Below are positions 511-25,263 of a stretch of DNA of 33,075 bases, one piece after another. The position numbers and the translations under genes are program-made. The notes beneath the pieces were generated by a model. That model was not told the origin of the DNA. It searched no databases and saw only the letters and a program-made list of their open reading frames with translations. This DNA is from Patescibacteria group bacterium. Lineage in GTDB: Bacteria > Patescibacteriota > Patescibacteriia > JAHJFT01. The stretch's first letter is position 1. The number at the start of each line of letters is the position of its first letter. Location of the stretch: assembly GCA_028710985.1 (NCBI GenBank), contig JAQTTB010000003.1, positions 1 to 33,075 of the forward strand. Reading direction: 5' to 3'.

Positions 511-512
511 AT

Positions 513-2951: not shown

Positions 2952-3467
2952 TTACATATTTAGAACCAGCCCGACCACCACGACCCCAAGAGTCTGGGGG
3001 GCGTCCTTACCTCGAAATATAAGATCGCCGGATATGAACATATCTACCGCCGGAATCTCAAAACCGCCAAAGACAGGCAAGTCTTTTAATAGGGTCGGTT
3101 TATATAATTCGATCCCGACCGTCCAGTTAATGTCCTTGTTCTCATAGTCCGCAACTTCGTAGTCGATGTCGCCGTGGATACCAAGCCGCAGTTCCCATAA
3201 TTGGGTCTGGGTATATCCGATGGCTCCGATGGATAAGTTATCCAGATTCTTGGCCCCGAAATTCAATTTACTGAATAAGGCCCGGCCCTCGACTTCAAAA
3301 TGTTTCGGCGAGATGGTAATCAGGTCGCCCTGGAATCCGGTCATTAAATGGATACCCGGCTCCCCGGAGTAATCGCTGAACGATCCCCCGACACCAAGAA
3401 CCGTCGCGGCCTGTGGCGCGGAACATAGGGCCAGTAGGGTTAGAAGCAAAAAGATTTTACGAAACAT
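2952..3467 (-). CDS. exported beta-strand-rich protein, outer-membrane beta-barrel-like
   Basis: Preferred ATG at 3467 with GGAGG 5 nt upstream. Signal-peptide-like MFRKIFLLLTLLALCSAPQAA is followed by about 8 alternating hydrophobic/polar segments. It is the last long gene of the lysis cassette. Confidence 0.6.
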   Translation of the reverse strand: MFRKIFLLLTLLALCSAPQAATVLGVGGSFSDYSGEPGIHLMTGFQGDLITISPKHFEVEGRALFSKLNFGAKNLDNLSIGAIGYTQTQLWELRLGIHGDIDYEVADYENKDINWTVGIELYKPTLLKDLPVFGGFEIPAVDMFISGDLIFRGKDAPQTLGVVVVGLVLNM

Positions 3468-3777
3468 TAGAACCTCCATTCCCAGCATTTATTTGTTTCA
3501 CCGTCTTAACTACCGCATGAGTGAATTCCGGCAATTTAGCGGCCACGAATCCCAGTACAAAACTCCAGAATACCTGCCCCTCCATCGGTGCCCCGGTTAA
3601 TTTTATAGCCCCGTAAGCCGTTGCCCCGATAGTAACCGTCGCCACGATTGCATAGAACCACGGTGCGTCGGCCAGACTGGTTTTTTGCAACAAATTCTTG
3701 AGCCACGCTATCATCGGCACCACGATTATCCCGGCCAGGGATATCGTTATTTGTTGCCACGTTTGGATATCTTCCAA
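3457..3777 (-). CDS. holin-like membrane protein (about 3 hydrophobic helices)
   Basis: TTG start at 3777 with AAAGGAG 6 nt upstream. Hydrophobic segments are ITISLAGIIVVPMIAWL, WFYAIVATVTIGATAYGAI and VFWSFVLGFVAA. It lies immediately downstream of the endolysin. Confidence 0.55.
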   Translation of the reverse strand: MEDIQTWQQITISLAGIIVVPMIAWLKNLLQKTSLADAPWFYAIVATVTIGATAYGAIKLTGAPMEGQVFWSFVLGFVAAKLPEFTHAVVKTVKQINAGNGGSNVS

Positions 3778-3793
3778 AACATACTCCTTTCTT

Positions 3794-4234
3794 TCAGACC
3801 ATTATCGTCTGAAATTCCATGTAATATTTCCACACATTGGCGGCATAATCGGAACCCAACGGCAGGCCCTTCTGGACATTACCTACCCCGGCGTTATAAG
3901 CCTGTGCCACTTTCCGCCAATCGGTCGTTTCCAGAAAATCGGCGCACCAGCGCAGATACCACGTTCCGACCATGATATTAACCATGTAATCAAAATAAAC
4001 ATCGGCCATATTCAAAGAACTATTCGTTCCCTTATTGTACTGATCGAGGGCCGGTTGGGTTATCTGCATCAAGCCGAAATCGGGCGTCGTGCCGATAGCC
4101 GAAACGTCGCCGCGCGTTTCCTGTTTAATTACGGCAAGAATAAGGGCCGGGGGAATTTTGAAGGTCTCCCCAAAACTTTTGGCCATCGGGCCATAGAGGG
4201 CCAGGATTTCTTTATCGCGTAACGCGCGCATCAT
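3794..4234 (-). CDS. endolysin, SLT-domain lytic transglycosylase
   Basis: SLT motifs KQETRGD (catalytic Glu), GLMQIT and AQAYNAGVGN. There is no N-terminal hydrophobic segment. AAGGAGG SD is followed by tandem ATGs, so the start is 4234 or 4231. Confidence 0.85.
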   Translation of the reverse strand: MMRALRDKEILALYGPMAKSFGETFKIPPALILAVIKQETRGDVSAIGTTPDFGLMQITQPALDQYNKGTNSSLNMADVYFDYMVNIMVGTWYLRWCADFLETTDWRKVAQAYNAGVGNVQKGLPLGSDYAANVWKYYMEFQTIMV

Positions 4235-4529
4235 GCCTCCTTATTTTATTCAGCAACCAATACGGAAACCAATGCCAAAAACTTACCGTCCGGTAATAGC
4301 CGGATTGTTTTATTTCATCTTTTTGAATAATGTGCTGGGCAAGGTCGTCGAGAGTATTCCATACGCCGATTATAAACAGGGTCAGCACAATCCACAAGGG
4401 CCAATGGGTCGCCATGAGAATCAAGAACGACAGGCCCATAATAATAAACCCGTGCCAGAAGTGATGGACTTCCCAGAATGAGAATTGCCCTTTATTGTGC
4501 GGCCCGGTGTCGCGGAAATACCAGCCCAT
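4212..4529 (-). CDS. holin-like membrane protein (2 helices, highly charged C-terminus)
   Basis: ATG at 4529 with GGAG 6 nt upstream, 2 nt after the stop of the upstream gene. Helices are FWHGFIIMGLSFLILMA and WPLWIVLTLFIIGVW. The C-terminus is KIRRHDARVTR. Confidence 0.55.
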   Translation of the reverse strand: MGWYFRDTGPHNKGQFSFWEVHHFWHGFIIMGLSFLILMATHWPLWIVLTLFIIGVWNTLDDLAQHIIQKDEIKQSGYYRTVSFWHWFPYWLLNKIRRHDARVTR

Positions 4530-4531
4530 TA

Positions 4532-6076
4532 TTATCTCCACCGCCGCAGGTCGGCGAATTGAATCGATGTTGTGGTATCCGTCACTTCACAGTACCACGG
4601 TCTCTCGATAATCGAGCCGTAACGGTCACGGAACACCGCTTTGTAATAAGAGGCCGTATCGGAAAGGTCGCCGTTGGCATAGAGGGGCAGGCTGAAATAT
4701 CCCGACGCATTGGCCGTATCCGTGACGACCCGTTGCGCGATCAGACTATCCTGAAAAGTTATAAGGCTTCCGGTTAGGGTATCCGAATAAGAAGTTTTCA
4801 ATTCAAAAGTAACCACGGCATAAGGATAAGGTTGGCCTGCCGGATTAAAGAGCGTGCCATAAACGGTCGTCTTGTTGGCCGCCGAAGTATATGTCCAGAG
4901 GGTATCGGTGCCGGTGCCGGTTATGGTGATGGTATCCATTATTTGCTGGTACCCGGGCGCAACGGAAAAGATGACCCAGGTTCCGGCATTTAATTGGAGC
5001 CAGGCCTTGCCGGTATTATCGGTTAGGTCATAATAAGCCGTGCCCGTCTGCGCCGAATTATTGGCATAGACAGCCGCCAGATTTAAGGCCGTAGTATCGC
5101 CCGCACTGGAATCAAGCAGGACGATATATCGGGCATAGGCCCCGTCGCCGTAGGCACACGAGCCAGACCCGGCGGAGGCGGCGGCAACCAAAAGGGAATC
5201 CCAGTAATAGGTATTCGCGCCCATAAGGTCGGCCACAGCCATACGGATAAGGCGGTATTTGACGGTATCGGCCATCTTACCGATATCGGCTTCGGAAATA
5301 GAGGCCACGTTTCCGGCCGTACTGACTGCCGCGTCGAGTAAATCCATTAAGGTATCCCCGAAAGTGCCGTCGGTCGATACCCAATACTGCACGCCCGCCG
5401 CCCAAATTTTAGCCCGCATCGCGGAATCGGCAAGTGCCGCAATCAAGTCATCACGTTGCGTGGTTGACCAGGTCTCGCTCGTCAAAGTCCGCGTCGCATA
5501 AGCCCAGACCTGGGCCTCATTGGTGTAATCCTGCGTCGCGGGATTCCAACCATCGAGATTGGCCACTTCGCTTTGAAGGGCCAGAGCCGAAACATTGGCC
5601 TTGAAAACATCCTCGTTCGCGCCGTTCGTAAAATAATTATAAACATCGGCGGCACTGTGGGTGCTGAATCCGGTCGCTTTGAAGTTTCCCTTATTGGCAT
5701 CGGCGATGGCATTTTCCAGCGAATCATCGGCCATGAAACCGGTCAATTCGACGGTGCCGCAAACACTGTCTTTCAAGGCGCCGCTATGGAAATAGGCCAC
5801 GACATCAAGACCCAGATTATCATACGCGCTTAAATCCTGATCAATCGTATCTTTGATAAAGGCCGATACCAATCCGCCCAGAGGTGGCCGGGTAGCGTTG
5901 GCCGTTATCGTGCGGATGTTATACGCCAGATATTTGATATGATATTTCAGGGAATCGGGGATGGCATATTCCCCGGTATAGGGGGAATAGCAAACGATCC
6001 TGATAGGATAGTATGGCTGGGCCGTCCCCATCAAGACCAACAAAAGCATCCCCAGTACGATGATTATTTTTTTCAT
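4532..6076 (-). CDS. signal-peptide-bearing fibre/receptor-binding-like protein with C-terminal beta-sandwich (carboxypeptidase-regulatory-like) modules
   Basis: N-terminus is MKKIIIVLGMLLLVLMGTAQP. The ATG at 6076 overlaps the upstream stop (ATGA). C-terminal segments such as DNTGKAWLQLNAGTWVIFSVAPGY and VYGTLFNPAGQPYPYAVVTFEL look like prealbumin-fold modules. Confidence 0.6.
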   Translation of the reverse strand: MKKIIIVLGMLLLVLMGTAQPYYPIRIVCYSPYTGEYAIPDSLKYHIKYLAYNIRTITANATRPPLGGLVSAFIKDTIDQDLSAYDNLGLDVVAYFHSGALKDSVCGTVELTGFMADDSLENAIADANKGNFKATGFSTHSAADVYNYFTNGANEDVFKANVSALALQSEVANLDGWNPATQDYTNEAQVWAYATRTLTSETWSTTQRDDLIAALADSAMRAKIWAAGVQYWVSTDGTFGDTLMDLLDAAVSTAGNVASISEADIGKMADTVKYRLIRMAVADLMGANTYYWDSLLVAAASAGSGSCAYGDGAYARYIVLLDSSAGDTTALNLAAVYANNSAQTGTAYYDLTDNTGKAWLQLNAGTWVIFSVAPGYQQIMDTITITGTGTDTLWTYTSAANKTTVYGTLFNPAGQPYPYAVVTFELKTSYSDTLTGSLITFQDSLIAQRVVTDTANASGYFSLPLYANGDLSDTASYYKAVFRDRYGSIIERPWYCEVTDTTTSIQFADLRRWR

Positions 6077-8127
6077 TTTCTAATTCTCCCTATATTGGCA
6101 CGCCCAAATTTTATCACGGTCGTTCCCTGCTGGCCTTCGCCCCAGACAAGGGTATCTGCATAAACATTCCAATCGACATTCATGGTCAGTGTCGTATCGG
6201 CCACGCCATTGGCGTCGGTATCGAAATATAAAGTAAAGGGCTTGAATCCCGTAGAGTCTCCCTCGGCGTCATAAGCATCGACCAGATAATAATACGATAC
6301 CACCCCGGAAGCAATGCCATCCGACCCGGTCGTATCGACCAAAACGGTATCGTTGTAATTATTCATCACGGTCAGGATAACGCCAGACAAATCAGCCCCA
6401 GTGCCCGAATGCACGAGCAAGTCCAGCGTTCGCTGGATAGTCAGGTCGCAGGTATCGCAAGCGGTCGTTTTTAAATCGCCGCGATAATAATAAGTTACCG
6501 CCGTAGGGGAGGCATCGTTATAAGTCCCGGTATCATTATAGTAAATATCCCGCGCCCATTGCATATCGGCGACGGAGCCGGGAAACCCGCCTTCACTCGT
6601 GCCGCCTTCCGCGCCCCAGTTGAAGGTGCCTTTTTGCGCCGTGGATATCCAGTCGTTATATAAATAAAGCGTGTCCTCCCGGATTATCATGCCGCCCGAT
6701 CCGCCGTCGTACTGGCCGAAATCGTAAGCCCATGTGCCTTGAATAAAAAAGACGTTTCCGATATGCAGGTGGGAACTATCATTAAGATAATCATCCCACT
6801 TCCAACCGGCAATCTCCCAATCCTCGGTCGCCGTCGGCGTGATGACTTGAGTCGAGCAGGTATTGTGCCGGGTGTGCAAAGAATCCCCGGTGATAAAATA
6901 ACTATGGTATTGCATACAACCGCATTCGCCTTTTTCACTATAACCCGTGCCATAATTGCCTGCCGCCACGACATCAAATTTCATGGTGATAATATTGTCA
7001 TGGAAATAAACGCCCCGACAATGCTCCCGCCATTTTGCCGCCGTGACATATCCGGTCGTATTTAAAGGATAGACCAATCCCTCATGGCAAATAATTCGAT
7101 TGTTGGATACTTCCATCGGGTCGGAGAAGGAAGCATTTATATGCTCAAAAAGTAAAGCCCTGCCGCCGTTATAGGTTTCGCCGGAATTGATATAGCATTC
7201 CTTGATATAAGAATCCGATCCCCACGAGCGCGCGATAATTCCGTAGGCATTAACCGTCCCGGCATACTGGCACTTATCAATATTGTCAAAGATAGCCATA
7301 CAACTATCGGCGAACTCGTTCCGGGTATCCATTATAATTGTATCCCGATAATGCTGAACGGAAAGCGATTCCGTAGCGGAACTACCGTAAGAACAAGTCG
7401 TCCGGCAGGCGGTATGACAATGAGATTCATAATGATTATATTCACTGTAAATATGATATTCGCCCGCCGAGAGGTTGGCCGTAATCAAACCCTGCGACAT
7501 CAAGCAACCAACAAGGAAATCCTGCCTATCCTCAAGGGCGTAAGCATCATTTATGAAAGTGCAATGGCGAACCGTAACCATCTTGGCCCCGCCGATACTG
7601 AAACACATGGATTGAAAATATCCGCCGGTCACGCGGATGGTCATGGAATCGAGAGTAACGTTGTAGATATTTACTGACGAACCTATCCCGTAAGTGCGAT
7701 TGGTATCAGCCCGTGAAAATTCGGTTTCCTCCCCGGTGATATTATCGGGTAAGTGCCATAATATCCCGCCGATGAATTTGATATCATGGGCGGTCTGCAT
7801 TATGCGAACCCCGGCGAAACAGGCAGGTGTTCCATACGCGCCGTAGGCTACGGAATTGAAAGCATCGGTGGCGAAATATATCGTATCATCATCGGCATTC
7901 TTGGCAATGCCGTCGGCCCCGCGTAAATCCAAGACCCAATGATGTGTCCCGGTGAGGAACGTCAAACCCGTGCCCTGACAGGTGATGTTCCCGGTAACGG
8001 TGATAGTATCCCATAGATCGGCGCTGTGCAGGGATTGCGACACGGCATAATTACAGGTTGACCATGTTAATTGGCCCGCCACGGCACTACCCGCACAAAG
8101 AAGTAATATGAGTAGTCGCTTAATCAA
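6073..8127 (-). CDS. signal-peptide-bearing, Cys-rich right-handed beta-helix-like protein (candidate depolymerase/tailspike)
   Basis: N-terminus is MIKRLLILLLCAGSAVAGQ. TTG start overlaps the upstream stop (TTGA). Periodic short hydrophobic, Gly/Asn/Thr-rich repeats are typical of pectate-lyase folds. The C-terminal segment VILTVMNNYNDTVLVDTTGSDGIASG looks like a beta-sandwich. Confidence 0.6.
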   Translation of the reverse strand: MIKRLLILLLCAGSAVAGQLTWSTCNYAVSQSLHSADLWDTITVTGNITCQGTGLTFLTGTHHWVLDLRGADGIAKNADDDTIYFATDAFNSVAYGAYGTPACFAGVRIMQTAHDIKFIGGILWHLPDNITGEETEFSRADTNRTYGIGSSVNIYNVTLDSMTIRVTGGYFQSMCFSIGGAKMVTVRHCTFINDAYALEDRQDFLVGCLMSQGLITANLSAGEYHIYSEYNHYESHCHTACRTTCSYGSSATESLSVQHYRDTIIMDTRNEFADSCMAIFDNIDKCQYAGTVNAYGIIARSWGSDSYIKECYINSGETYNGGRALLFEHINASFSDPMEVSNNRIICHEGLVYPLNTTGYVTAAKWREHCRGVYFHDNIITMKFDVVAAGNYGTGYSEKGECGCMQYHSYFITGDSLHTRHNTCSTQVITPTATEDWEIAGWKWDDYLNDSSHLHIGNVFFIQGTWAYDFGQYDGGSGGMIIREDTLYLYNDWISTAQKGTFNWGAEGGTSEGGFPGSVADMQWARDIYYNDTGTYNDASPTAVTYYYRGDLKTTACDTCDLTIQRTLDLLVHSGTGADLSGVILTVMNNYNDTVLVDTTGSDGIASGVVSYYYLVDAYDAEGDSTGFKPFTLYFDTDANGVADTTLTMNVDWNVYADTLVWGEGQQGTTVIKFGRANIGRIRK

Positions 8128-8897
8128 TGGATTCGCCCTCCGTGCAGACGACCGGCGTGTAATCTATTCCTGCCTTGCGGCCAATAATGGGCATAGACAA
8201 CAAAGACGGGTCTATTCCCTGCCGTCGCATTATCCTCCGAGGCACAATTAAGACTATAAGCCGTGCAGTTGATTAATACCCCGGCATCAATCAAAAGTCC
8301 CTGATTGGAATCGGCAGGGTATCGCGTCCATCTTTGAACTACTGAAGTATCAAGCCAGAACTTTTTGGTGGTATAGGCCGCCGAAACTCCCGTAATGGCA
8401 TAACCCGTAGGATGATGGGTATCATCAATACCATCAACCCTATCGGCAATATTAATGGCTCCCGCCTGTGTCCAACTAACTCCGGTTTTCGATTCGTCCC
8501 AATCTATCTCGGCCGCAACGGTGCTTTTCAAAACCCGATTGACCGCAAAGTTACAACTATCATCCGAACCCGCCGTTCCGTTCGTCCGCCATGTTAATTG
8601 CAAATAAGCCGAATCGAAAATATAGTTCGTCCAAATACCATTGGAAATCATGCCGGAATCGAGTAATGTATCAATTCCCAAACATCTAACCCAAAGAGTG
8701 CGGTCATTGGCTTCCTCGGAAGAAATCATAGTATCGAGGGTATTGGAATGAGCCGCAGAATCCGCCCCCTGCTTTATAAATCCGTCCTCTAACAAGGTCG
8801 TGGTCGTAATCGTCCATGATGTATCTCTGGGTGTTACGGCAAAAGCGATTGCCGCCATCGTGACCAAACCGATGATTATATTCCTGATTATAATCAT
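8124..8897 (-). CDS. N-terminally anchored protein, possibly a DNRLRE/carbohydrate-binding-like domain
   Basis: ATG at 8897 overlaps the stop of the giant gene (ATGA at 8894..8897). N-terminus is MIIIRNIIIGLVTMAAIAFAV. The IDWDESKTGVSWTQAG motif resembles the W-x-E-x(n)-TW signature of DNRLRE domains; this is tentative. Confidence 0.55.
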   Translation of the reverse strand: MIIIRNIIIGLVTMAAIAFAVTPRDTSWTITTTTLLEDGFIKQGADSAAHSNTLDTMISSEEANDRTLWVRCLGIDTLLDSGMISNGIWTNYIFDSAYLQLTWRTNGTAGSDDSCNFAVNRVLKSTVAAEIDWDESKTGVSWTQAGAINIADRVDGIDDTHHPTGYAITGVSAAYTTKKFWLDTSVVQRWTRYPADSNQGLLIDAGVLINCTAYSLNCASEDNATAGNRPVFVVYAHYWPQGRNRLHAGRLHGGRIH

Positions 8898-11800
8898 TCG
8901 AGTTTCCTCACGAAAACCATCACCTCGGCTATCTTGACATATAAGGTCTGACATACTTTTGTCATTAGAGTCGCCACTATTTGATGGGATGCATCATACT
9001 TCGGTTCGGGAACATTGGTTCCCGCCGAGGGAGCAATTTCAGTTTCGGATGTATCCGAATACCGTGCCTTCCTTGTCCAGACCGACGTATCCGAACTAAC
9101 GTATATAGTATCGTCAAAAGCCACTGATGGCGTATCCGCTATCCCCGCATTGCCCGCAAACTTTTCCACCATTAGTTGTCGGCGGGTGATACCACAATAA
9201 GTTGTGCTGGTGGCATTCCCCCCACCACCCGTCTTGAATATCACTATCAGGGATTCGACGATGCAATTATAAGGGGCCAACGTTGAGAAGGATAAAGTAT
9301 CATATCTTAAGCCGGTGCCGGTCGAAGAATCATTAACAGCGAAATATCCGCCCTTACCTAACCAAGTTATACCGCCGCGTTTCTGCCCCGGTAAAGTAGC
9401 GTCAATAGAATCTTTACCGTCAACGTAACCATGCACCCTATCAAGTCGGAGATATTCATATTCCGAAACGGTATCGGCGTATTCTTTTTCCTCAAAATAT
9501 AAGTTATGATTATAGATATGGTAAACGCCATTGGAAGATAGACCGCTTGTCATCATCTTATAATGGAATCCGTTAGCATCAAAGGCAGGAATACCTGATG
9601 TCCGATATATGGTCGTTAAATGTCCGGTGCCCGGATATAAATAAGGCAGGGAATCACACTCAAAATGCACGCCGTCATAAGACTTACAGAAGTAATTCCC
9701 CTGATGTCCCACGGTATCACTGCCTACAATCGAATCCGATAAGGCCCCGCCGGGTTTACCCGCCGTTATGAATAAATGTATCTCGTCGAAAACTCTCTGG
9801 GCATTAATATGCCAGGGTGCCATCGTCGAGGGGAAACCATTCAGAACGCAGGTATCCCATGTTCCGAAATAAGCGGGCGTCCCTCTGGGCACGTAGAATA
9901 TCCCGTCGGTCGTATCCGACCATGACCCGAATAGACTATCATTCACGAGTCTTTGAATACAATAGGACGACCCAGTATCAAGGACGGTGTATATCCAGTA
10001 TTTATTATTCGGTGCAGAGATAATCGACGGCGATATGGGAGACGCCGCCGAACCCACTCTAAAATAAGTAAAGAGCCGATAGAAATCTTCATTCTTGTCG
10101 GCCACGCCGTCGTCATAAAACAAAAGACCCTTATTCGCTCTGACGGCCACAAAGGTTGCGGCATCGGTATCATTCACCGCCAAGGGCCGCTTTAAGTCAT
10201 TCTGCGATTCAATAGTAATTACCACCAAACGTCCGTCGGTATCGAAGAACAAATCGGGGTCGGCATCACCCTCGCAATTAGAAGTCGTATCCCATAATGA
10301 ATCTTTGAATCCTACGGAATCGGATGTAAATAATGGGAAATTCCAGAATATAGTATCGCCGTTCTGGTCGATAAACCACGGCAATTCCCAGTTGGCCGTA
10401 TCGTGCGAAACAAGTAAGGTCGTCCATTCCTGACTGAATCCCTGCACGGAATCGGTATAACTATAAGCCATAAGATAATTCCACGAGGGGGATGAAGTGA
10501 TGATATGCTTGCGTTTGTTGGCCGTGAACTGCCATTTTTCCGCCCCGCTATGACCCGTTACCGCGCCGAAATATACCTGCACACCTTTGTTTATAGTAAG
10601 AGCCGAAGCCTCCAAAACGCAGTTAAGAGTATCCGCCCAACTGCCCGATTCCCAACTGGTATCGTTTGCCCGCCACCTGAAGGTTTCGGGATTGGCGGCT
10701 TCATCGACTATTTCGACGTAATAAGTATCGGCATGGTTGAAACTTTCGGAATAGGTTCCTTTGGTGTGTAAATCGTTTTGATCCGTGCCCTGCGTATAGG
10801 CTTCGCGGTATATGGGGTTGCCTATGAAATCGGCCATTGCACTATCGCCGACGGGATAATCAATACCCCACGGGACAAAGTGCCAATCAGGATGTATCCC
10901 GCCGCGTTCCATCGAATCAGCCAAAGCGGAATCACTTCCGTCCATAGACAGAAATCGCAGGGGTTCGATATTGCCTAATTGTAACATATCGTTAGCACCG
11001 GGTGTGATGGCCGTAGCCGCATTGGATTGAAAGTCGGTAAGTAAATCGACTTGCGCCATGCGTCCCGTAATCCTGAAATCACCCTGCAAGAGAACGTTCC
11101 GGGTCAGGGCTACGTCATTAGAATCGACATAAGCGGTCGTGGCCAATGCGGAATCTGATTTAGTCGAATCCGATTTATAGGGACTGGTGATAACGGCTTT
11201 GTCTGCCAATAAGGTTGCCGCCCGCGCGCTCTTGACCGCCCGCAGGGAATCAGTCAATCGAATATATGACCCGGTATCGGGTCGGGTCGAACGCAGTTGA
11301 TTGGCGGTATCACTCTTGAGTAGATAGGCGTCTAATGAATCCTCCAGTTCGCCCTCGGATGCCTTCGCGGTATCAATCATTAGGGTATCATAAGCCAATT
11401 TAAAATGGGTTGTATCATCCGTTACTTTTCCAAGCCGGGTAAGGCTGGCAAGGAAAGCCGCTGTATCAGCCATCAGGGAATCATGTATTCTGATTTTGGC
11501 AAAATATTCAGTAGCATAAGCGGAATCGGCACTCGCCGAAGTCCCCCGATAGGCATCGTCAAAGACGACATTACTGGCGGTAGAGTCGATATCATTTTTA
11601 TCAATCGTCTGATCCTGAATTTCGCCGGCGGCCCCACCGTCAACCGCACCGGCGGCAATCTGGGCGTCGGCAACCGTCCCACCGAGTTCGGAAAAATTAT
11701 CATGGGCGGCATCGGTTTCGGTTACGTTCAATACCCCGGAAGTGACGGATAATCCCGTGCCGGTAAAATCAGCGATAGAATCGGTATTGATTTTTACAAA

Positions 11801-13228
11801 GCCGAGATTGCCTCCGCCGGTCGTGGTAATATTCTGGTTATAAAGATAAAGACTGTCCGTTAGATAAAACCGGGATTCGCTCTGCCGATAACGAAGATAA
11901 GCGCCATTGGCAATACTTTTGAAAAAATATAGATACCCATCGTCATCAACATTATCTACGTTTAGATTAATTCCCTGCTTTACTTTCAGGGTCGTGGCCG
12001 TGTCCTCAAGGTCAAGACGGTTATTCAAGGCCGCCAGGATTTTTGTGCCGGTCGTGTCAAGATTGGCACCGACGGCCATTGCCACGGGATCGGTCTCGGT
12101 GATTTCGTTGGCCGCCCAAGGATTGGCCGTATTGACCAAATTTTCGGCGATAGTTCCGTCAGCGATATCCGTCAAGGTGGCTTCCAGCGGTTGATAGGCA
12201 CTGCTATGATTATGGTTGCCCGCCGCAACTTGTGCCGCGCCTGTCCCGATATCCCCGTCTGAACTCAAGTCATCGTAAGCGTCGAGGATATATCCGGTAT
12301 GGGTATGGCCCAAAAGAGAATATGTCCCGTCGTGATTATGATTACCGGCGGCTACTTGGTCGGCCCCGGTGCCTATTTTAGATTCGGCCGTCAAGTCGGC
12401 AAAGGATGAATAACGGTCGGTCGAAATCGTCCCACTACTGATATCCGCGCCCGCGTGCGCGTGCGAAATCGTGGCATAGACTAAATCATGGTTATGGGTT
12501 GTCGCGGAAAAATAGGTGGCGATTGTATGCCCCGCACCATCGGCGGTAGCGGCATCGGCCAGTTTAACATATAATTTATCATCGGGATCGACGGCCAATG
12601 TCGTGGTATCGAAATATCCTGCCGCCGCATAAGCCATGAAAGTGGACAAACTGAACGACCCGGCACCGGCGGCATACCGGCCCGTCAGGTCTATCATGGA
12701 ATCCATTCGCACCCAATTAACAAAAACCGTTTCGGCAGAATCGGGCGATACGAATTTCATTTTGCCCAGAGCCAGTAAGGAATCGAACTCCGCTAAACCG
12801 GGCGCACCGAATTCCAGTTGACCGAGGTTGTTCACGCAGGCGACGATATGGGTATCAAGGTAAATGCAGGAATCAATAAACTTCACACGAAAGGCCGAAC
12901 CCGCAATATTGAATTGGAAATCACCGGCAGTCGGATTATAATAATAGCCATAGGCCGTCAGGGAATCTTGTGAAAATATCCCCGTCCCGCCTTCGCCGGT
13001 CAAATCCGGTGCCCAATAGAAGGTATCCGATGCGGCCTCATATTTGATAGTATAGCCATCGGAAGGCGCGCCGATAGGTATCCTTCGCCCGCGCAGGGAA
13101 ACAGCCGTGCCCGGCTTGAAAAGCACTTCGCCGAAGGTTTCATGCCAGAGGACAAAAAATAAGATGAATAATAAAAATATCCCCACGCCATTGGCGGCTA
13201 TTCGATTCCAATCTTTTCGTTTCGGCAT
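8894..13228 (-). CDS. giant tail-fibre-like protein (about 1444 aa) with an N-terminal membrane-anchor-like helix and HxH fibre repeats
   Basis: ORF-track frame is 8894..13240. The ATG at 13228 has GAGGA 5 nt upstream. N-terminus is MPKRKDWNRIAANGVGIFLLFILFFVLW. HxH motifs include TTHNHD, SHAHAG, AAGNHNHDGTYSLLGHTHTGY and AAGNHNHSSAY. Confidence 0.75.
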   Translation of the reverse strand: MPKRKDWNRIAANGVGIFLLFILFFVLWHETFGEVLFKPGTAVSLRGRRIPIGAPSDGYTIKYEAASDTFYWAPDLTGEGGTGIFSQDSLTAYGYYYNPTAGDFQFNIAGSAFRVKFIDSCIYLDTHIVACVNNLGQLEFGAPGLAEFDSLLALGKMKFVSPDSAETVFVNWVRMDSMIDLTGRYAAGAGSFSLSTFMAYAAAGYFDTTTLAVDPDDKLYVKLADAATADGAGHTIATYFSATTHNHDLVYATISHAHAGADISSGTISTDRYSSFADLTAESKIGTGADQVAAGNHNHDGTYSLLGHTHTGYILDAYDDLSSDGDIGTGAAQVAAGNHNHSSAYQPLEATLTDIADGTIAENLVNTANPWAANEITETDPVAMAVGANLDTTGTKILAALNNRLDLEDTATTLKVKQGINLNVDNVDDDGYLYFFKSIANGAYLRYRQSESRFYLTDSLYLYNQNITTTGGGNLGFVKINTDSIADFTGTGLSVTSGVLNVTETDAAHDNFSELGGTVADAQIAAGAVDGGAAGEIQDQTIDKNDIDSTASNVVFDDAYRGTSASADSAYATEYFAKIRIHDSLMADTAAFLASLTRLGKVTDDTTHFKLAYDTLMIDTAKASEGELEDSLDAYLLKSDTANQLRSTRPDTGSYIRLTDSLRAVKSARAATLLADKAVITSPYKSDSTKSDSALATTAYVDSNDVALTRNVLLQGDFRITGRMAQVDLLTDFQSNAATAITPGANDMLQLGNIEPLRFLSMDGSDSALADSMERGGIHPDWHFVPWGIDYPVGDSAMADFIGNPIYREAYTQGTDQNDLHTKGTYSESFNHADTYYVEIVDEAANPETFRWRANDTSWESGSWADTLNCVLEASALTINKGVQVYFGAVTGHSGAEKWQFTANKRKHIITSSPSWNYLMAYSYTDSVQGFSQEWTTLLVSHDTANWELPWFIDQNGDTIFWNFPLFTSDSVGFKDSLWDTTSNCEGDADPDLFFDTDGRLVVITIESQNDLKRPLAVNDTDAATFVAVRANKGLLFYDDGVADKNEDFYRLFTYFRVGSAASPISPSIISAPNNKYWIYTVLDTGSSYCIQRLVNDSLFGSWSDTTDGIFYVPRGTPAYFGTWDTCVLNGFPSTMAPWHINAQRVFDEIHLFITAGKPGGALSDSIVGSDTVGHQGNYFCKSYDGVHFECDSLPYLYPGTGHLTTIYRTSGIPAFDANGFHYKMMTSGLSSNGVYHIYNHNLYFEEKEYADTVSEYEYLRLDRVHGYVDGKDSIDATLPGQKRGGITWLGKGGYFAVNDSSTGTGLRYDTLSFSTLAPYNCIVESLIVIFKTGGGGNATSTTYCGITRRQLMVEKFAGNAGIADTPSVAFDDTIYVSSDTSVWTRKARYSDTSETEIAPSAGTNVPEPKYDASHQIVATLMTKVCQTLYVKIAEVMVFVRKLE

Positions 13229-13240
13229 ATTATTCCTCAT

Positions 13241-13492
13241 CTATTTTTCACCATCATGGCTATAAGGACACTTGGTGTTTTTTATTTGACTTCTGATTTC
13301 ATCCAATTTTTTATTTATATCATCCATCTGGGTCAAAGCCCGCTTCTCCACCCGGTCGATATTTTCCTTCAAGGATTTAATCTCGAAATCGTGAACGGAG
13401 GATTTAACCTTGACAACGGCCCATTGCACTATAACAAAAGCGGCAAAGGCTCCGACAATGGCAATCGTTTGTGTCCAAGTTCCCGCTTCCAT
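13241..13492 (-). CDS. small bitopic protein: N-terminal TM helix, coiled coil, C-terminal Cys
   Basis: ATG at 13492 preceded by GAGGTGAT. TM helix is TQTIAIVGAFAAFVIVQWAVV, followed by heptad-like KSLKENIDRVEKRALTQMDDINKKLDEIRSQIKN and then KCPYSHDGEK. Confidence 0.6.
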   Translation of the reverse strand: MEAGTWTQTIAIVGAFAAFVIVQWAVVKVKSSVHDFEIKSLKENIDRVEKRALTQMDDINKKLDEIRSQIKNTKCPYSHDGEK

Positions 13493-13499
13493 AATCACC

Positions 13500-13751
13500 T
13501 CATACCACGTATTTGGTGATAATGGGAATTATAATGGCAATTATTGCGATGCCGCCTAACATATAAGCCCGCCACTGTTCCAAGTGATGAATCCTTCCGT
13601 TTTGTTCGTCTAAATGCTTCACTATCTCATCGGTATTCTTCTTGATCGTATCGACGGTTTCGAATAAACGTCCCATGTCGATTGGATTCAAACCTAATGC
13701 GCACTTGGTTTCTTCGGGCATAATATTTCCCTTTGGGGTTTCATCGTTCAT
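13500..13751 (-). CDS. small tail-anchored coiled-coil membrane protein
   Basis: Lies in ORF-track frame 13500..13775. The start is uncertain: ATG at 13751, or ATG at 13721 which has the better AAAGGGAA SD. The C-terminal helix is MLGGIAIIAIIIPIITKYVV. Confidence 0.55.
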   Translation of the reverse strand: MNDETPKGNIMPEETKCALGLNPIDMGRLFETVDTIKKNTDEIVKHLDEQNGRIHHLEQWRAYMLGGIAIIAIIIPIITKYVV

Positions 13752-13797
13752 GATATATACTCGTTTCCTTACCAAGTGCTCGTTTGGTAATTTATTT

Positions 13798-15972
13798 TCA
13801 CAACAATTCTACCGCCGTAAATTCGGTCTTTTCAATCCCGACCCGAACATTCGTGATAAGCAATTTTATCGTTGCCCAGGATTCGCCGCCCGGTGCCAAT
13901 ATATGCGGATCGACCGTCGTGGCGTCTAATTGAATCCAATCGCCCGGTTGCAGGTGCGCGTAGGCGAACCCGACCGTGGCGAATTGAACCTGATTATGCT
14001 CGTTAGCCCAGATACCGTCGCCGTCCGCCGCCGTCCCGTCGGCCTTGCGGATATAATGATTAGCCACATGCGCCGCCGATGTGCCGCAGATATTCGGCCA
14101 TCTTAAATCAATATTGATTGTCCCGAATTTGCCCGCCGTCTTGGTGGTATTCTCAATGGTCGTCAGGTCACGATAGACATTGCCGTATTCCTGCTGATAT
14201 CGTGATTCAATCGTGGCTTTGTTGGCGATGAATTTTGTCTTGATGACTCTGATTTCCGGCAGACCTTTATCGTCGCCGCATATCAGACTGGCCGGAATAG
14301 TTTCGACGATAGTGGGCACGATGAAATCGTTCAGGGGAATAAGATAAGCCTTGCCTGCCGCACTCCAGAAGAAGGCGAAAGTCGATTGTTCGGCCAACTG
14401 CTTGATGATGTCGAACAGGAGCATCTGATTTCCAGAATGAAGATTGATCCGCCCTTTGACGTTGGTATTTTCGGCGGCGGTAAAAGAAGTCATGTCAATA
14501 TCGGCGTCAACCAGTCCGGCCTCATCACGCAAGAGCGATTCGATAATCCCCGACATATCCTCAATCATAAAATCATCGGCATAACTGGCCCCGCGCCCGG
14601 TAATCCATGAACCGTAAGTGCGACCCTTGCAGGCGGCAAAGGTCTTTTGAAAATCCTTTAGAACACAGAAGAATTTCACGCGGATTTCATAAATATAAAT
14701 TACGGTTTGATTATCGGCCACGCCATCAGCCGAGGCCCAGGCATCCTTCTTAACGTATAGGCGCAGGAAGTTCGGCTTTTGAGTTTGAAGATTAGGAACA
14801 ACACCAGAAGAAGCCCAACTGCCGGTGATGCCAATATCGTCTTCCTCTACGATAGTACCCGGGGTTTCATTTATTTCAGTCTGAATCCTAATTTTCGCTT
14901 CATCGGGCGTTCCCATCTGGGAAGTCGCCTTAACTTGAAACATCATGGCGCCAAGATCGTCGATATGACTGATAAGCCATGAGGCATCTTTTAATTTCCA
15001 ATAACTGGCATGAGCGGTATATCCCGCGTCACCCGTATCGTAAGAGTCTTTGCCTTCGACATAAGTTGTATCGTCTAAATCGCGTCCGTTTTCATTGGCG
15101 AGATTTTGAGCAACACCGGCCTCGTCGATATATGCTCCTGCTTCCGGCATTGCCCATAAATCAAAAATTCCGGCACCCCATTCGGCGGTATAAAGAACGG
15201 CGGTTATATATCCACCGTCATCAAAATCGAGCGTTGCCAAAGAATGAATCGCCGGATGGGTTAAACCGGAAAAGGCCGACCATAGTTGTGTAATTTCCTC
15301 GCCGACATGATTAGCGATAACGAATTTTTGGCCCGGATTAATATCGACCGGGATAGCCAGAGCCAGACCCAACCCGGTATAATCAAAGTCATCGTCATCG
15401 TCCCCGGCCAGACTGTATTGGCCATAGGCGATAGGGATTTTCTGATTCAGCGATTCCGTCGGGGCATCGGCCCAGACGGACGATATGAGATTCTTCGGCA
15501 ATTTGATATTCAAGAATTTCGACTTGTCGATGATGGTTAATTTGATGGTGTCCGCATCATATTCAAGACCCGGCTCGACATTGCCCACGAACCGCGCCAG
15601 ACAATCATTCGGAAAGGTCGCAATCGTTTCGCCCGCGACTAAATAAACTATCGCCTCATAAGCCGTCACGCCGCCGAGGTCGTCCGACGGCCGTACCATG
15701 ACACCGCTGGAGTTCATCCGATAAGGTGCATTAACCAGTTCGATATCGACATTGGCCACTTCCCAGGATTTCGTCGCCCAATCGAAACCTTCCTGAATCC
15801 CCGAAAAGGATTTTATCAGGGCATAGACAAAGGGCGTGGTCGGATAATTAAGGCGCATATTGACATCGGAGAAATAGTAATAGTTCGTACCGTCGTATAA
15901 CTTGACGATGATATGGGATTGTATCCCGAATTTCTTGGCCTTGATTTCAAAGGCGGCATGATCCAACGGCAT
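13798..15972 (-). CDS. tail tip / baseplate-hub (host-specificity, Tal/J-like) protein
   Basis: 724 aa, second gene after the tape measure. The call rests mainly on position and on the N-terminal pattern HIIVKLYDGTNYYYFSDVNMRLNY...VDIELVN seen in tail-tip proteins. Confidence 0.55.
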   Translation of the reverse strand: MPLDHAAFEIKAKKFGIQSHIIVKLYDGTNYYYFSDVNMRLNYPTTPFVYALIKSFSGIQEGFDWATKSWEVANVDIELVNAPYRMNSSGVMVRPSDDLGGVTAYEAIVYLVAGETIATFPNDCLARFVGNVEPGLEYDADTIKLTIIDKSKFLNIKLPKNLISSVWADAPTESLNQKIPIAYGQYSLAGDDDDDFDYTGLGLALAIPVDINPGQKFVIANHVGEEITQLWSAFSGLTHPAIHSLATLDFDDGGYITAVLYTAEWGAGIFDLWAMPEAGAYIDEAGVAQNLANENGRDLDDTTYVEGKDSYDTGDAGYTAHASYWKLKDASWLISHIDDLGAMMFQVKATSQMGTPDEAKIRIQTEINETPGTIVEEDDIGITGSWASSGVVPNLQTQKPNFLRLYVKKDAWASADGVADNQTVIYIYEIRVKFFCVLKDFQKTFAACKGRTYGSWITGRGASYADDFMIEDMSGIIESLLRDEAGLVDADIDMTSFTAAENTNVKGRINLHSGNQMLLFDIIKQLAEQSTFAFFWSAAGKAYLIPLNDFIVPTIVETIPASLICGDDKGLPEIRVIKTKFIANKATIESRYQQEYGNVYRDLTTIENTTKTAGKFGTINIDLRWPNICGTSAAHVANHYIRKADGTAADGDGIWANEHNQVQFATVGFAYAHLQPGDWIQLDATTVDPHILAPGGESWATIKLLITNVRVGIEKTEFTAVELL

Positions 15973-24693: not shown

Positions 24694-25263
24694 TTACCTC
24701 GCGTTCAAAACCACGGCGTTGGTGTAATATATTTTCCCGGCATTACGCGCCACGGTATAATCCGAATCGTTCATGATCATCAAGAGCCGCCCATAAATGA
24801 CATCACCCAACACGCTGTCATCGGGGAAGTCGAAATATCGCGTCTGAATCTTGGCGACGCCCACGCCCGGATTGGCGAAGGTCAAAGTGCATATCAGTTT
24901 TTCATAATTGCGATAGGGATTATTCCAGGCCGTATAAATATACCAGACCACCGAATCTTTCGAGGTGTCGGCGTAATCATTGGCCGCCGACCCGGTATCG
25001 AGTTTGCTGATATAGCAACTGAATATTCCCTCGACATCGGTAGCCCCGAATAAGTCGTTAAAGTAAAATAACGGTGCTAATCCGGTGCCGACCAGTGAAT
25101 CGGTCTGGGTCGTTCGGGCCGCCGTGGTATCGACGGCTTTGCTCGACACGTAACTATTGGAATAGCGCGAGCCGTCACCCGTGATTCCCTTATCACTGGC
25201 CGTCAGGGATACCAAGAGGGCGATGAAGGCCACCAGCGCAATTACGGACAATCGTTTCAACAT
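24694..25263 (-). CDS. N-terminally membrane-anchored or secreted protein of unknown function
   Basis: ATG at 25263 with GAAGGAG 9 nt upstream. N-terminus is MLKRLSVIALVAFIALLVSLTASD, followed by a beta-rich domain. Confidence 0.6.
   Translation of the reverse strand: MLKRLSVIALVAFIALLVSLTASDKGITGDGSRYSNSYVSSKAVDTTAARTTQTDSLVGTGLAPLFYFNDLFGATDVEGIFSCYISKLDTGSAANDYADTSKDSVVWYIYTAWNNPYRNYEKLICTLTFANPGVGVAKIQTRYFDFPDDSVLGDVIYGRLLMIMNDSDYTVARNAGKIYYTNAVVLNAR

Follow-up and report, generated by a model that had tools for sequence, protein, structure and literature searches.

In the stretch of DNA analysed here (the window, 33,075 nucleotides), the four large proteins encoded after the tail-tip gene seem, with a probability that we put at about 0.7, to form a late, co-translated module of exported and probably heavily glycosylated fibre- or tailspike-like proteins. 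The known fibres of tailed phages lack Sec signals and are folded and assembled in the cytoplasm, and periplasmic maturation of fibre-like proteins is, as far as the literature searched shows, new for tailed phages. Neither a cultured phage with the arrangement nor a description of it was found in that literature on tailed phages, and no sequence relative of the block proteins was detected in 50,697 phage records or the PDB.

Gene order between tail tip and lysis genes

A sequence-only reading of the window had drawn attention to six consecutive proteins beyond the tail tip, each with a hydrophobic segment, and hydropathy (Kyte-Doolittle, 19-residue windows) and gene order bear this out. The minus strand encodes all six, in a block of ~9 kb that runs from the tip gene (15972-13798) to the lysis cassette in the order p91, p85, p1444, p257, p684, p514. 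The features are as follows, an arrow marking a predicted cleavage site.

13798..15972, minus strand: tail-tip protein, 724 aa, coming after the tape-measure gene; upstream limit of the block
13500..13751, minus strand: p91, 83 aa from the ATG at 13751, or 91 aa if the TTG at 13775 is the start
13241..13492, minus strand: p85, 83 aa from the ATG at 13492
8894..13228, minus strand: p1444, fibre-like, 1444 aa, with a 19-residue hydrophobic segment behind a basic N-terminus
13145..13201, minus strand: hydrophobic segment of p1444, IAANGVGIFLLFILFFVLW, residues 10-28, hydropathy 2.46, after MPKRKDWNR
12206..12496, minus strand: HxH fibre repeats of p1444, with five HxH motifs across residues 245-341
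8124..8897, minus strand: p257, predicted exported, 257 aa; signal peptide MIIIRNIIIGLVTMAAIAFA↓VT (8838-8897)
6073..8127, minus strand: p684, tailspike-like, 684 aa, TTG start; signal peptide (M)IKRLLILLLCAGSAVA↓GQ (8077-8127)
4532..6076, minus strand: p514, predicted exported, 514 aa; signal peptide MKKIIIVLGMLLLVLMGTA↓QP (6020-6076)
2952..4529, minus strand: lysis cassette adjoining the block (the next four genes)
4212-4529, minus strand: p109, membrane protein, beginning 3 nt past the p514 stop
3794-4234, minus strand: SLT endolysin, next after p109 (Pfam SLT match, E = 1.9e-16)
3457-3777, minus strand: p106, holin-like
2952-3488, minus strand: p178, signal-bearing and beta-rich
24694..25263, minus strand: p189, predicted exported and glycosylation-site-rich, between the portal-MuF and protease-capsid genes; signal peptide MLKRLSVIALVAFIALLVSLTA↓SD

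The three stop/start overlaps of 4 nt already described for the block are exact (ATGA at 8897-8894, TTGA at 8127-8124 and ATGA at 6076-6073) and do lead into the lysis genes, and a Shine-Dalgarno motif precedes every start that takes in a hydrophobic segment. All four large post-tip proteins have a signal-like N-terminus, versus one product of the 16 genes that run from the portal to the tip (head, neck and tail), namely that of the 189-aa ORF (25263-24694). In the tail-tip protein no hydrophobic segment was found and glycosylation sites are not enriched (2 versus 3.1 expected); its ends are conserved and its middle is variable, with identities of 57% and 38% to the tips of the related contigs L002 and L004.

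Could the block consist of lysogenic-conversion morons, i.e., host-surface proteins resembling lambda Lom/Bor that were inserted by chance after the tail genes? Signal-bearing morons do adjoin tail-fibre genes in lambdoid phages. However, the overlaps couple the genes to one another and to the lysis genes, a search of the block for promoter- or terminator-like sites revealed no excess, its GC content is near that of the remaining window, its products are large mosaic proteins of fibre-like character, and the arrangement is conserved group-wide, all of which makes such an origin very improbable.

Two classes of protein in the block

The six proteins had been treated as one class, and in this the sequence-only reading was mistaken: p91 and p85 are a class apart from the large proteins, being bitopic coiled-coil membrane proteins and not signal-peptide proteins. 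p91 is a coiled coil with its TM segment at the extreme C-terminus (LGGIAIIAIIIPIITKYVV, 13503-13559, hydropathy 2.29) and so is tail-anchored, and p85 has an N-terminal TM segment (TIAIVGAFAAFVIVQWAVV, 13412-13468, hydropathy also 2.29) followed by a coiled coil. No significant family was found for p91 in Pfam, PHROG or NCBIfam; p85 weakly matches PHROG 1009 (2.4e-4) and an Rz-like spanin family (0.024). A p91 homologue comes next after the tip gene both in L002, where it has 81 aa, and in L008, where it has 97 aa. L010 encodes a 296-aa fusion in which a p91-like coil, cytoplasmic, is joined by a TM segment to a periplasmic domain with glycosylation sites. Sites of the same kind lie within the coil of two p85 analogues, L004_116 and L009_90, which suggests that this coil is periplasmic; window p85 has none. 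The pair may serve as a tether between tail tip and membrane, or may be inner-membrane-spanin-like.

For the large proteins, signal peptides were called from hydropathy, from conservation and by the -3/-1 rule. The signal segments show the full layout of basic n-region, h-region and small residues at -3 and -1; those of p257, p684 and p514 are probably cleavable and of SPase-I type, and the four large proteins, together with p189, are predicted Sec substrates. With its long h-region, short conserved basic N-terminus and no clean A-x-A site, p1444 could have either a signal anchor or a long signal peptide. Its segment is conserved in the orthologue P0002, to which identity is 77-87% over the first 400 aa and 14-46% thereafter, and P0003 and L004_968 have an analogous segment with the cleavage sites AHA↓G and AQA↓Q, respectively, behind it. 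The HxH repeats ascribed to p1444 are indeed there, and it weakly matches the tail-fibre family PHROG 19961. Signal peptides start 29 of its 31 distant matches, most of which span just 2-8% of the protein at 34-92% identity and are taken to be to the HxH region.

A family search with p257 gave no match. p684 had been described as having a Cys-rich beta-helix-like body; the cysteines, 20 of them, are real and the beta-helix is hinted at by its best Foldseek matches, beta-helix tailspikes and polysaccharide lyases (best E 4.7e-3, AF2 pLDDT 45). In its homologues P0048-P0050 both the signal peptide and its A-x-A↓GQ site are retained. p514, the most conserved of the exported proteins and always the final gene ahead of the lysis cassette, has a C-terminal beta-sandwich resembling domains of phage fibre-like proteins (also from Foldseek, both AF2 models being of low confidence, pLDDT 45 and 41). 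At E < 1e-3 its family numbers 789 representatives, clustered at 50% identity; 151 were examined, of which at least 111 carry a signal peptide. A signal-less relative is located among podophage tail genes. The public gene calls for p684 (P0047) and p514 (P0034) begin downstream and lose the signal peptide. The HxH repeats, the probable beta-helix, the beta-sandwich and the combination of conserved N-terminus and variable distal part are the grounds for considering the proteins fibre- or tailspike-like, a domain content, glycan-binding or glycan-cutting, that is shown in part.

Glycosylation sites accompany the signals

The three-residue site D-[S/T]-[AILVMT] is that of Bacteroidota periplasmic O-glycosylation. 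In 31 signal-bearing proteins (20.9 kaa) it occurs 472 times versus 129 expected (O/E 3.66, z = 32.5), and none of the control motifs is enriched there, be it the reversed motif (O/E 0.99), the E-variant (0.67), the N-variant (0.61), D[ST] plus another residue (0.98) or D[AG][AILVMT] (1.05). The density, about 2.3-2.6 per 100 aa, seems high. Within the window p1444 has 40 sites versus 9 expected (z = 11), p514 16 versus 3.4, p684 11 versus 3.5 and p257 4 versus 1.6; p189 has 4 in its 189 aa, and there are none in any of the four lysis-cassette proteins. Across the p514 family the 115 signal-bearing members have an O/E of 3.49 (z = 68.6; 95% of them above 2), the figure being about 1 for the 11 full-length members truly without a signal peptide, and in the signal-less virion proteins of the group the site is depleted (O/E 0.60, z = -3.7).

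Enrichment at the first residue is confined to D (3.5), with E depleted (0.60); at the third the order is L (6.2), V (4.5), I (3.5), then M, C and T (about 2.7) and A (1.9), followed by G (0.95) and by P and charged residues (< 0.7); and Ser outnumbers Thr, 2016 to 1215. Judged by residue statistics, these preferences agree with the published site, which is periplasmic, confined to non-cytoplasmic proteins and intolerant of E (PMC12871550, PMC8550257). As such a site is selectable only outside the cytoplasm, confinement of its enrichment to signal-bearing proteins argues that the signals work. A late exported module was one of two readings offered earlier, and its export component is strongly supported by the conserved signal peptides and the 3.5-3.7-fold enrichment in signal-bearing proteins only.

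Might the hydrophobic N-termini nevertheless not be export signals, the proteins being cytoplasmic with segments that are buried in the baseplate or penetrate a membrane during infection? Cytoplasmic tail fibres are the textbook expectation, and hydrophobic helices are known in ejection and tape-measure proteins. Yet the complete signal-peptide layout, and a 3.5-fold site enrichment that is tightly coupled to the segments and absent in signal-less relatives and cytoplasmic virion proteins, leave this idea with very little to recommend it. The general statement that tailed-phage fibres lack Sec signals holds for three cultured phages of Bacteroidota, crAss001, B40-8 and Flavobacterium phage 11b, whose fibres have neither signal peptide nor site enrichment.

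Blocks in related phages

A search for homologous blocks in other phages had been advised, and five further phages have the gene order and the hydrophobic N-termini; in six contigs of the group the block is exactly at the usual fibre-gene position. The signal-bearing proteins are of 406, 428, 836 and 506 aa in L002, of 968, 353, 329, 667 and 690 aa in L004 and of 403, 646 and 768 aa in L005, with others in L009 and L010, and no signal peptides were found in the upstream head/tail proteins of these five. The predicted signal peptides are conserved in all the homologues found, those of p684 and p514 among them, while the mature domains are swapped. The lysis set is found again in L002, L004, L009 and L010 with differing endolysin types (no signal was found in the SLT endolysin of the window), and in L005 the endolysin is followed by other small genes.

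Signal-bearing blocks also occupy other places in the late operon: L006 and L016 have theirs in the head-proximal part, behind the portal gene, and those of L008 and L015 are between head and connector genes, that of L015 being head-proximal. In L008 a 1730-aa fibre without a signal peptide follows the tip gene. The blocks of L015 and L016 are not enriched in the glycosylation site, so glycosylation is not the general reason for export. Neither the glycosylation signature nor these other positions were foreseen from the sequence-only reading.

A possible route from periplasm to tail tip

With the module exported as preferred above, the overlaps and Shine-Dalgarno sites point to late synthesis from one translationally coupled message with the tail genes. 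N-terminal signal peptides would take p1444, p257, p684, p514 and p189 across the inner membrane, p1444 by a long signal peptide or a type-II signal anchor, and a host general O-glycosylation system of Bacteroidota type would, going by the site statistics, modify them in the periplasm. Export signals plus periplasmic sites imply maturation there and not where tails are built. The proteins, presumably for host-surface recognition or depolymerization, would be outside only once holin and endolysin merge the compartments. Periplasmic fibres and cytoplasmic tails are a topological problem for assembly and a counterpoint to this explanation. Our slight lean, a little short of even odds, is towards exported fibres binding the tail tip at lysis as opposed to staying free; p91 and p85, anchored in the inner membrane, may hold the tip at the membrane facing the periplasmic fibres.

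If the proteins do stay free, a sizeable minority prospect, the block would encode exported accessory proteins outside the virion, glycan-binding or depolymerizing, the tip protein alone binding the receptor, perhaps through its variable centre. Their roles, equally tentative, could be envelope remodelling from the periplasm or, after release at lysis, stripping capsule or receptors off debris and neighbours. The topological problem then vanishes, and the differing block positions in L006, L008, L015 and L016 suit accessory proteins better than baseplate fibres, as do the separate signal-less fibre of L008 and the presence of p189, small, exported and site-rich, in the head module. However, the block is at the exact fibre-gene position in six contigs and takes ~9 kb of a 33-kb window, signal-less p514-family relatives are among tail genes, p1444 has the conserved first 400 aa and divergent remainder typical of receptor-binding proteins attached to virions, and site depletion in signal-less virion proteins would be puzzling if virions never came into contact with the periplasm.

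The second reading offered earlier, a membrane-tethered docking device, is compatible with three of the six proteins (p1444, p91 and p85). It would have p1444 as a type-II anchor spanning the inner membrane, with its N-terminus and p91/p85 engaging the tip from the cytoplasm, and the fibre attached already when the membrane is destroyed. Consistent with it are the p1444 segment of 19 residues lacking an A-x-A site, the conserved cytoplasmic motif (MPKRKDWNR in the window, MGKRTDWNK in P0002), the constant place of p91-like genes next after the tip gene, the L010 fusion and the site-bearing p85-like coils of L004 and L009. It is unlikely, though, given the clean cleavage sites in the p1444 relatives P0003 and L004_968, the window p85 that lacks a site and has flanking charges suggesting the opposite orientation, the alternative spanin-like identity of p85, and the retention of a p91-like gene in L008 despite its signal-less fibre.

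Comparison with known systems

Genes for T4 gp37-type HxH fibres and the beta-helix tailspikes of P22, Sf6, HK620 and CBA120 provide close parallels: the block genes are likewise directly after the tail-tip gene, p1444 shares HxH repeats, conserved N-terminus and variable distal part with tail fibres, p684 weakly matches the tailspike fold and the p514 beta-sandwich is common to phage fibre-like proteins. Unlike these, the block proteins are densely supplied with periplasmic glycosylation sites and start with signal peptides that are conserved. Exported phage proteins are known, namely spanins (Rz/Rz1), signal-peptide or SAR endolysins, T5 Llp and lambda Lom/Bor, and with these the block has in common phage encoding and the host Sec pathway; however, these are small proteins of lysis or exclusion, whereas the block proteins are of 257-1444 aa, fibre- or tailspike-like and encoded in ~9 kb. 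In crAss001 and B40-8 the clearest site-enriched protein is a membrane-anchored one of the lysis cassette, with glycosylation sites as in the block. Mycobacteriophage virions are glycosylated by phage-encoded, cytoplasmic glycosyltransferases. Glycans on phage structural proteins would be a shared feature, though in the block they are putative and would be added by the host, in the periplasm, with export a requirement. Bacteroidota general O-glycosylation substrates include the S-layer proteins of Tannerella forsythia (PMC12871550, PMC8550257). The block proteins resemble these substrates in the three-residue site, its positional preferences and its confinement to proteins with export signals, but the known substrates are cellular, and no mention of phage substrates was found in the literature searched.

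Host

Relatives are binned in a Zixibacteria MAG and a Dehalococcoidia MAG, assignments that conflict. Shine-Dalgarno sites precede 24 of the 38 window genes versus 8% of random positions, and their use is 43-100% in relatives versus 25% in crAss001. Such heavy use is atypical of the class Bacteroidia, and the host must then belong to a Shine-Dalgarno-using lineage that possesses this glycosylation system.

Signal-bearing genes between the tail tip and the lysis cassette

The window is the late region of a siphovirus-like, uncultivated phage with every gene on the minus strand. Its order is large terminase, portal-MuF fusion, 189-aa ORF, protease-capsid fusion, adaptor and neck genes, and tube, followed by tape measure, 274-aa distal tail protein, 724-aa tip protein, the six block proteins p91, p85, p1444, p257, p684 and p514 (the last four named for their lengths in amino acids) and the lysis cassette. 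The two fusions are recognized from PHROG matches to their separate parts.

Genes of the late region
25291-27447 (-): 718-aa fusion of portal and MuF-like head-morphogenesis domain
24694-25263 (-): p189, the 189-aa ORF
22610-24661 (-): prohead protease fused to major capsid protein, 683 aa
8894-13228 (-): p1444
8124-8897 (-): p257
6073-8127 (-): p684
4532-6076 (-): p514

The sequence-only reading had given each of the six block proteins a hydrophobic end, and hydropathy finds one strong segment per protein, at just those ends. They do not form a single class: p91 (coiled coil and C-terminal transmembrane segment) and p85 (N-terminal transmembrane segment and coiled coil) are small bitopic membrane proteins, and p257, p684 and p514 have classical signal peptides. 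These three have the full Sec and signal peptidase I layout, with a basic n-region of net charge +1 to +2, a short uncharged h-region of 7–15 residues, small residues at -3 and -1, and the sites AFA/VT, AVA/GQ and GTA/QP respectively, where the slash is the predicted cut. The N-terminus of p1444 is atypical, being basic with an h-region of 15–19 residues, no clean A-x-A and TFG/E as sole candidate site; either a long signal peptide or a type-II anchor would fit. Of the 16 genes for head, neck and tail that run from portal to tip, the 189-aa ORF alone encodes a signal-type N-terminus.

The 4-nt overlaps that had been reported between the genes from p1444 to p514 (ATGA, TTGA, ATGA) are exact, and the block does run on into lysis genes, first for a small membrane protein, then for an SLT-domain endolysin (Pfam E = 1.9e-16), then for a holin-like protein and last for a beta-rich protein with a signal. 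Is the block then a lambda-type moron, Lom- or Bor-like? It is not, as the overlaps amount to translational coupling and promoter- or terminator-like sites are not in excess. Non-structural genes flank the late genes at 513-1355 (-), 109-570 (-) and 32239-33075 (-); they include a PD-(D/E)XK nuclease and a DUF6166 protein, and a DUF5131 protein among them extends past the end of the window. No integrase-type family match was obtained among the scanned proteins.

Are the chosen starts the right ones? A GGAG/GAGG-type Shine-Dalgarno sequence lies upstream of every start codon that takes in a hydrophobic segment. The downstream alternatives in the public calls of p684 (P0047, from an internal GTG, 669 aa) and p514 (P0034, from Met10, 505 aa) lack a Shine-Dalgarno sequence or merely shorten the signal. 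Since these starts remove or truncate the signal peptide, the database versions of both proteins hide the feature, and its trimming by gene callers means that it is under-reported in annotation.

Several other marks of export or membrane function were considered and set aside. Basic tails at the C-termini (GRIRK, GGRIH and similar) fall where the overlapping gene that follows has its GGAG Shine-Dalgarno, and so are not taken for sorting signals. Type IX secretion cargo was discounted, the C-terminal sorting domains Por_Secre_tail, TIGR04183 and TIGR04131 not being found with Pfam and NCBIfam. For an autotransporter-like beta-signal, a final W is frequent in the p514 family, yet many members carry residues beyond it; also against that idea, the confident C-terminal part of the p514 model is rich in beta-strands and matched small phage-protein domains. 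The Cys-richness previously noted for p684 is real (20 Cys), but as proof of oxidative folding it fails: p684 alone is Cys-rich, only four Cys are invariant in its homologues, and the cytoplasmic terminase holds 12. A two-component spanin was entertained for p85/p91, as p85 has the layout of an inner-membrane spanin, but its PHROG match is at only E = 0.024, no lipobox ORF that could be the outer-membrane lipoprotein partner occurs in the window, and the two genes sit 9 kb upstream of the lysis cassette. An XhlA-like identity of p91 was dropped, there being no Pfam match even at E <= 10.

Signals kept while mature domains are exchanged

The closest relative of p1444, P0002 (44% identity), is encoded on a 32.7-kb contig, L002, with identical gene order. 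There the tip gene is followed by an 81-aa p91-like protein, a 1363-aa protein with a p1444-type N-terminus, proteins of 406, 428, 836 and 506 aa, all with signal peptides, and a lysis cassette of the same layout. As only some of these proteins have homology to those of the window, the signal has been kept while mature domains were swapped. The arrangement recurs in four further uncultivated phage contigs, L004 (of which L014 is an IMG/VR copy), L005, L009 and L010. In L010 the tip gene is followed by a 296-aa protein (9114-10004) with a p91-like N-terminal coiled coil, a transmembrane segment at residues 76–94 and, at the C-terminus, a domain of ~200 aa in which residues 158 and 183 are glycosylation sites; it is predicted to be bitopic and to span the inner membrane.

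Are the hydrophobic N-termini themselves conserved, as the sequence-only reading had asked? The p684 homologues all keep the signal and the A-x-A/GQ junction, and every close p514 homologue retains its signal. A profile search of 1.84 billion cluster representatives (50% identity) gave 789 p514-family representatives at E < 1e-3; a signal-like N-terminus is present in at least 111 of the 151 examined, and many of the remainder are fragments or members of a distinct signal-less subgroup. Distant matches to p1444, mostly spanning 2–8% of it, start with a signal peptide in 29 of 31 cases. Megablast of the block against 50,697 GenBank phage records gave nothing at the nucleotide level; p514, P0114 (a further member of the p514 family), p684, the tip protein and the database protein P0006 have no tblastn match there, and terminase alone is matched, at 22–29% identity. 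A PDB sequence search of the block proteins gave no match, and IMG/VR yielded, besides the L004 copy, just one small HxH match.

Likeness to fibres and tailspikes

The block follows the tip gene in the tail module, and p1444 combines a conserved N-terminus with a variable distal part, as fibres and tailspikes do: its first 400 aa are 77–87% identical to the L002 protein, the rest 14–46%. In the tip protein the ends are conserved and the middle is variable. The HxH motifs attributed to p1444 number five, within residues 245–341. A match to PHROG 19961 is weak (E = 0.011). Foldseek matches of p684 are to beta-helix tailspikes and lyases, weak but consistent (E >= 4.7e-3), and the C-terminal beta-sandwich of p514 matches domains from fibre-like phage proteins (BFVD E = 1e-7), the matched proteins being mostly unnamed. 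Both AlphaFold models are of low confidence (pLDDT 45 and 41) and the fold assignments are therefore tentative. In one podophage contig a signal-less relative of the p514 family adjoins SU10-type adaptor genes and the gene of a Pel9A-like beta-helix. From the repeats, the mosaic identity, the fold matches and this relative, the block proteins appear fibre- or tailspike-like. Sialidase-like Asp-boxes in the C-terminus of p1444 were not accepted, as there is a single loose match.

A statistical fingerprint of probable periplasmic O-glycosylation

If the signals work, do the mature proteins bear traces of life outside the cytoplasm? The general O-glycosylation system of Bacteroidota modifies D-(S/T)-(A/I/L/V/M/T) in the periplasm, solely on non-cytoplasmic proteins (PMC12871550; PMC8550257). 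In B. fragilis E is no substitute for D in the site, the third residue is preferably L, I, V, T, A, S or M, and serine is slightly favoured (2025 review, PMC12871550). This site is greatly enriched in the signal-bearing proteins and scarce in the signal-less virion proteins of the same phages.

Occurrence of D-[S/T]-[A/I/L/V/M/T] (observed; expected; observed/expected, O/E; z)
31 signal-bearing proteins, window and relatives (20,944 aa): 472; 129; 3.66; 32.5
27 signal-less virion proteins, same phages: 23; 53; 0.43; -4.4
115 signal-bearing p514-family representatives: 2336; 670; 3.49; 68.6
Eleven full-length signal-less p514-family members: O/E about 1

None of the control motifs is enriched in these 31 signal-bearing proteins of window and relatives: reversed 0.99, E-variant 0.67, N-variant 0.61, D[ST] with another residue 0.98, D[AG][AILVMT] 1.05, G[ST][AILVMT] 0.97 and N-x-S/T 1.07. 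Of the signal-bearing p514-family members, 95% have O/E > 2, the reversed motif being at 1.00. Enrichment by third residue falls from L at 6.2 through V (4.5), I (3.5), M (2.8), C and T (both 2.7), A (1.9) and F and S (both 1.8) to G at 0.95, with P and charged residues below 0.7; at the first position D alone is enriched (3.5) and E is depleted (0.60), and serine exceeds threonine, 2016 to 1215. The need for D, the hydrophobic third residue and the preference for S over T closely match the published Bacteroidota site. Within the window p1444 has 40 sites, p514 16, p684 11 and p257 4, with none in the endolysin, p109, p106, p178 and p85. The gene of the head-module protein p189 lies between those of the portal-MuF and protease-capsid fusions. 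The protein combines a signal peptide, MLKRLSVIALVAFIALLVSLTA, followed after the predicted cut by SD, with four sites, which together mark it as a putative exported protein within the head module; it has no family match.

As the modification is extracytoplasmic only, such a density of sites would be selectable only in proteins that leave the cytoplasm, and the tight link between site and signal peptide within the p514 family is strong indirect evidence that the signals work. We conclude from these sequence statistics that the block is a predicted exported module, and it is probably heavily O-glycosylated.

A larger set of 56 signal-less virion proteins, from the window and the contigs L002, L004, L007, L008 and L010, is also depleted in the site (46 versus 76 expected, O/E 0.60, z = -3.7). 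The depletion is specific, as control motifs are at ~1 and crAss001 structural proteins, at 1.07, are not depleted. Modest as it is, it might reflect contact of the virions with the compartment in which glycosylation takes place.

Comparison with other phages

The premise, put forward with the original observation, that fibres lack Sec signals holds in three cultured Bacteroidota phages. Signal peptides and site enrichment are both absent from the crAss001 fibres and tailspikes (gp22-26), from the B40-8 tail fibres and from the large tail proteins of Flavobacterium phage 11b, unlike in the window block. The protein that stands out most clearly for the site in crAss001, as in B40-8, is instead an N-terminally anchored lysis-cassette protein: crAss001 gp27 (25093-25695 of L013) has 4 sites against 0.3 expected and B40-8 ORF11 (15801-16406 of L017) has 5 against 0.9. 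At the level of site counts, this suggests that in cultured Bacteroides phages the periplasmic lysis proteins undergo an overlooked glycosylation by the host.

Two unrelated uncultivated phages, L015 and L016, have six- or seven-protein signal-bearing runs within the structural module, with proteins of 1171 and 2067 aa among them and with no site enrichment (17 versus 17.3 expected and 42 versus 45.5). Signal peptides alone thus do not give enrichment, and export of fibre-like proteins is not confined to glycosylating hosts; glycosylation as the general reason for export is accordingly rejected. Head-proximal runs of 3–7 signal-bearing fibre-like proteins in the late operons of other uncultivated phage groups were located as follows, those of L006 and L008 being counted for sites only within the pooled enriched set.

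L015, 7457-15882
L016, 9130-23253
L006, 6551-14862
L008, 619-4897

Where would the exported proteins end up?

Textbook tailed-phage assembly is wholly cytoplasmic. The most far-reaching reading, at a probability of roughly 0.4, is that these virions are completed outside the cytoplasm. Fibres and tailspikes would be exported by Sec, fold in the periplasm and be O-glycosylated there by the host; they would attach to the cytoplasmically built tail tip only once holin lesions or lysis merge the compartments, and the p91/p85 membrane tether would perhaps position them beforehand. The signal-bearing blocks of L006, L015 and L016, from other uncultivated groups, suggest that such a route would be widespread. 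Attachment to the virion at lysis, taken by itself, is a proposition that we rate a little short of even. The block occupies the fibre position, the p1444 N-terminus is conserved, and from terminase to lysis genes there is no further fibre candidate; so dense a set of glycosylation sites suggests that the proteins persist for long outside the cell, and the site is depleted in the signal-less virion proteins. Membrane-spanning coiled-coil proteins are, besides, encoded between tip and fibres, and the L010 protein fuses cytoplasmic coil, transmembrane segment and site-bearing periplasmic domain. However, having fibres and tails in two compartments is a topological problem, and in other phages the signal-bearing block is at other positions: L008 has a signal-less 1730-aa fibre after its tip gene and its signal-bearing block elsewhere. 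That the block proteins are instead free exported proteins is a reading we take seriously, at rather below even odds.

What is at stake? A receptor-binding-type block is, by prediction, routed through Sec with the statistical fingerprint of heavy, periplasm-only host glycosylation. In the searchable literature and collections no description of tail-fibre-like proteins with Sec signals was found, nor in that literature any phage substrate of the Bacteroidota O-glycosylation system, though papers elsewhere are possible in both cases. Were completion outside the cytoplasm true, it would give tailed phages their first case of an extracytoplasmic assembly step, and also their first of virion proteins that owe their glycans to a periplasmic pathway of the host. 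As virion parts, the proteins would imply a late assembly step so far unknown and a new kind of glycan-coated adsorption apparatus, with consequences for host range, for resistance to proteases and immunity, and for phage engineering. As free proteins, they would mean that phages secrete mixtures of glycosylated depolymerases or adhesins ahead of lysis. Either way, the joint signature of site and signal allows cheap recognition of such modules and points otherwise unassignable phages to hosts with Bacteroidota-type O-glycosylation.

The host and the end of the lysis cassette

For the present phage the site signature points to a diderm host with Bacteroidota-type O-glycosylation. A core Shine-Dalgarno motif precedes 24 of the 38 window genes, against 8% at random positions, and in relatives its use is 43–100% versus 25% in crAss001. 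Due to this heavy use, the host is probably not typical of the class Bacteroidia; it could belong to another class of Bacteroidota or to a neighbouring FCB-group lineage. Assignment from MAG bins was abandoned, as one relative is in a Zixibacteria MAG and another in a Dehalococcoidia MAG, and the bins conflict.

The last gene of the lysis cassette, after the holin-like gene, always encodes a signal-bearing beta-rich protein of 150–180 aa, at these positions.

Window, 2952-3488 (-)
L002, 22028-22486
L004, 12964-13440
L009, 14993-15484
L010, 20078-20578

It has no glycosylation sites and no family match, and may represent an outer-membrane disruptor of a new kind.
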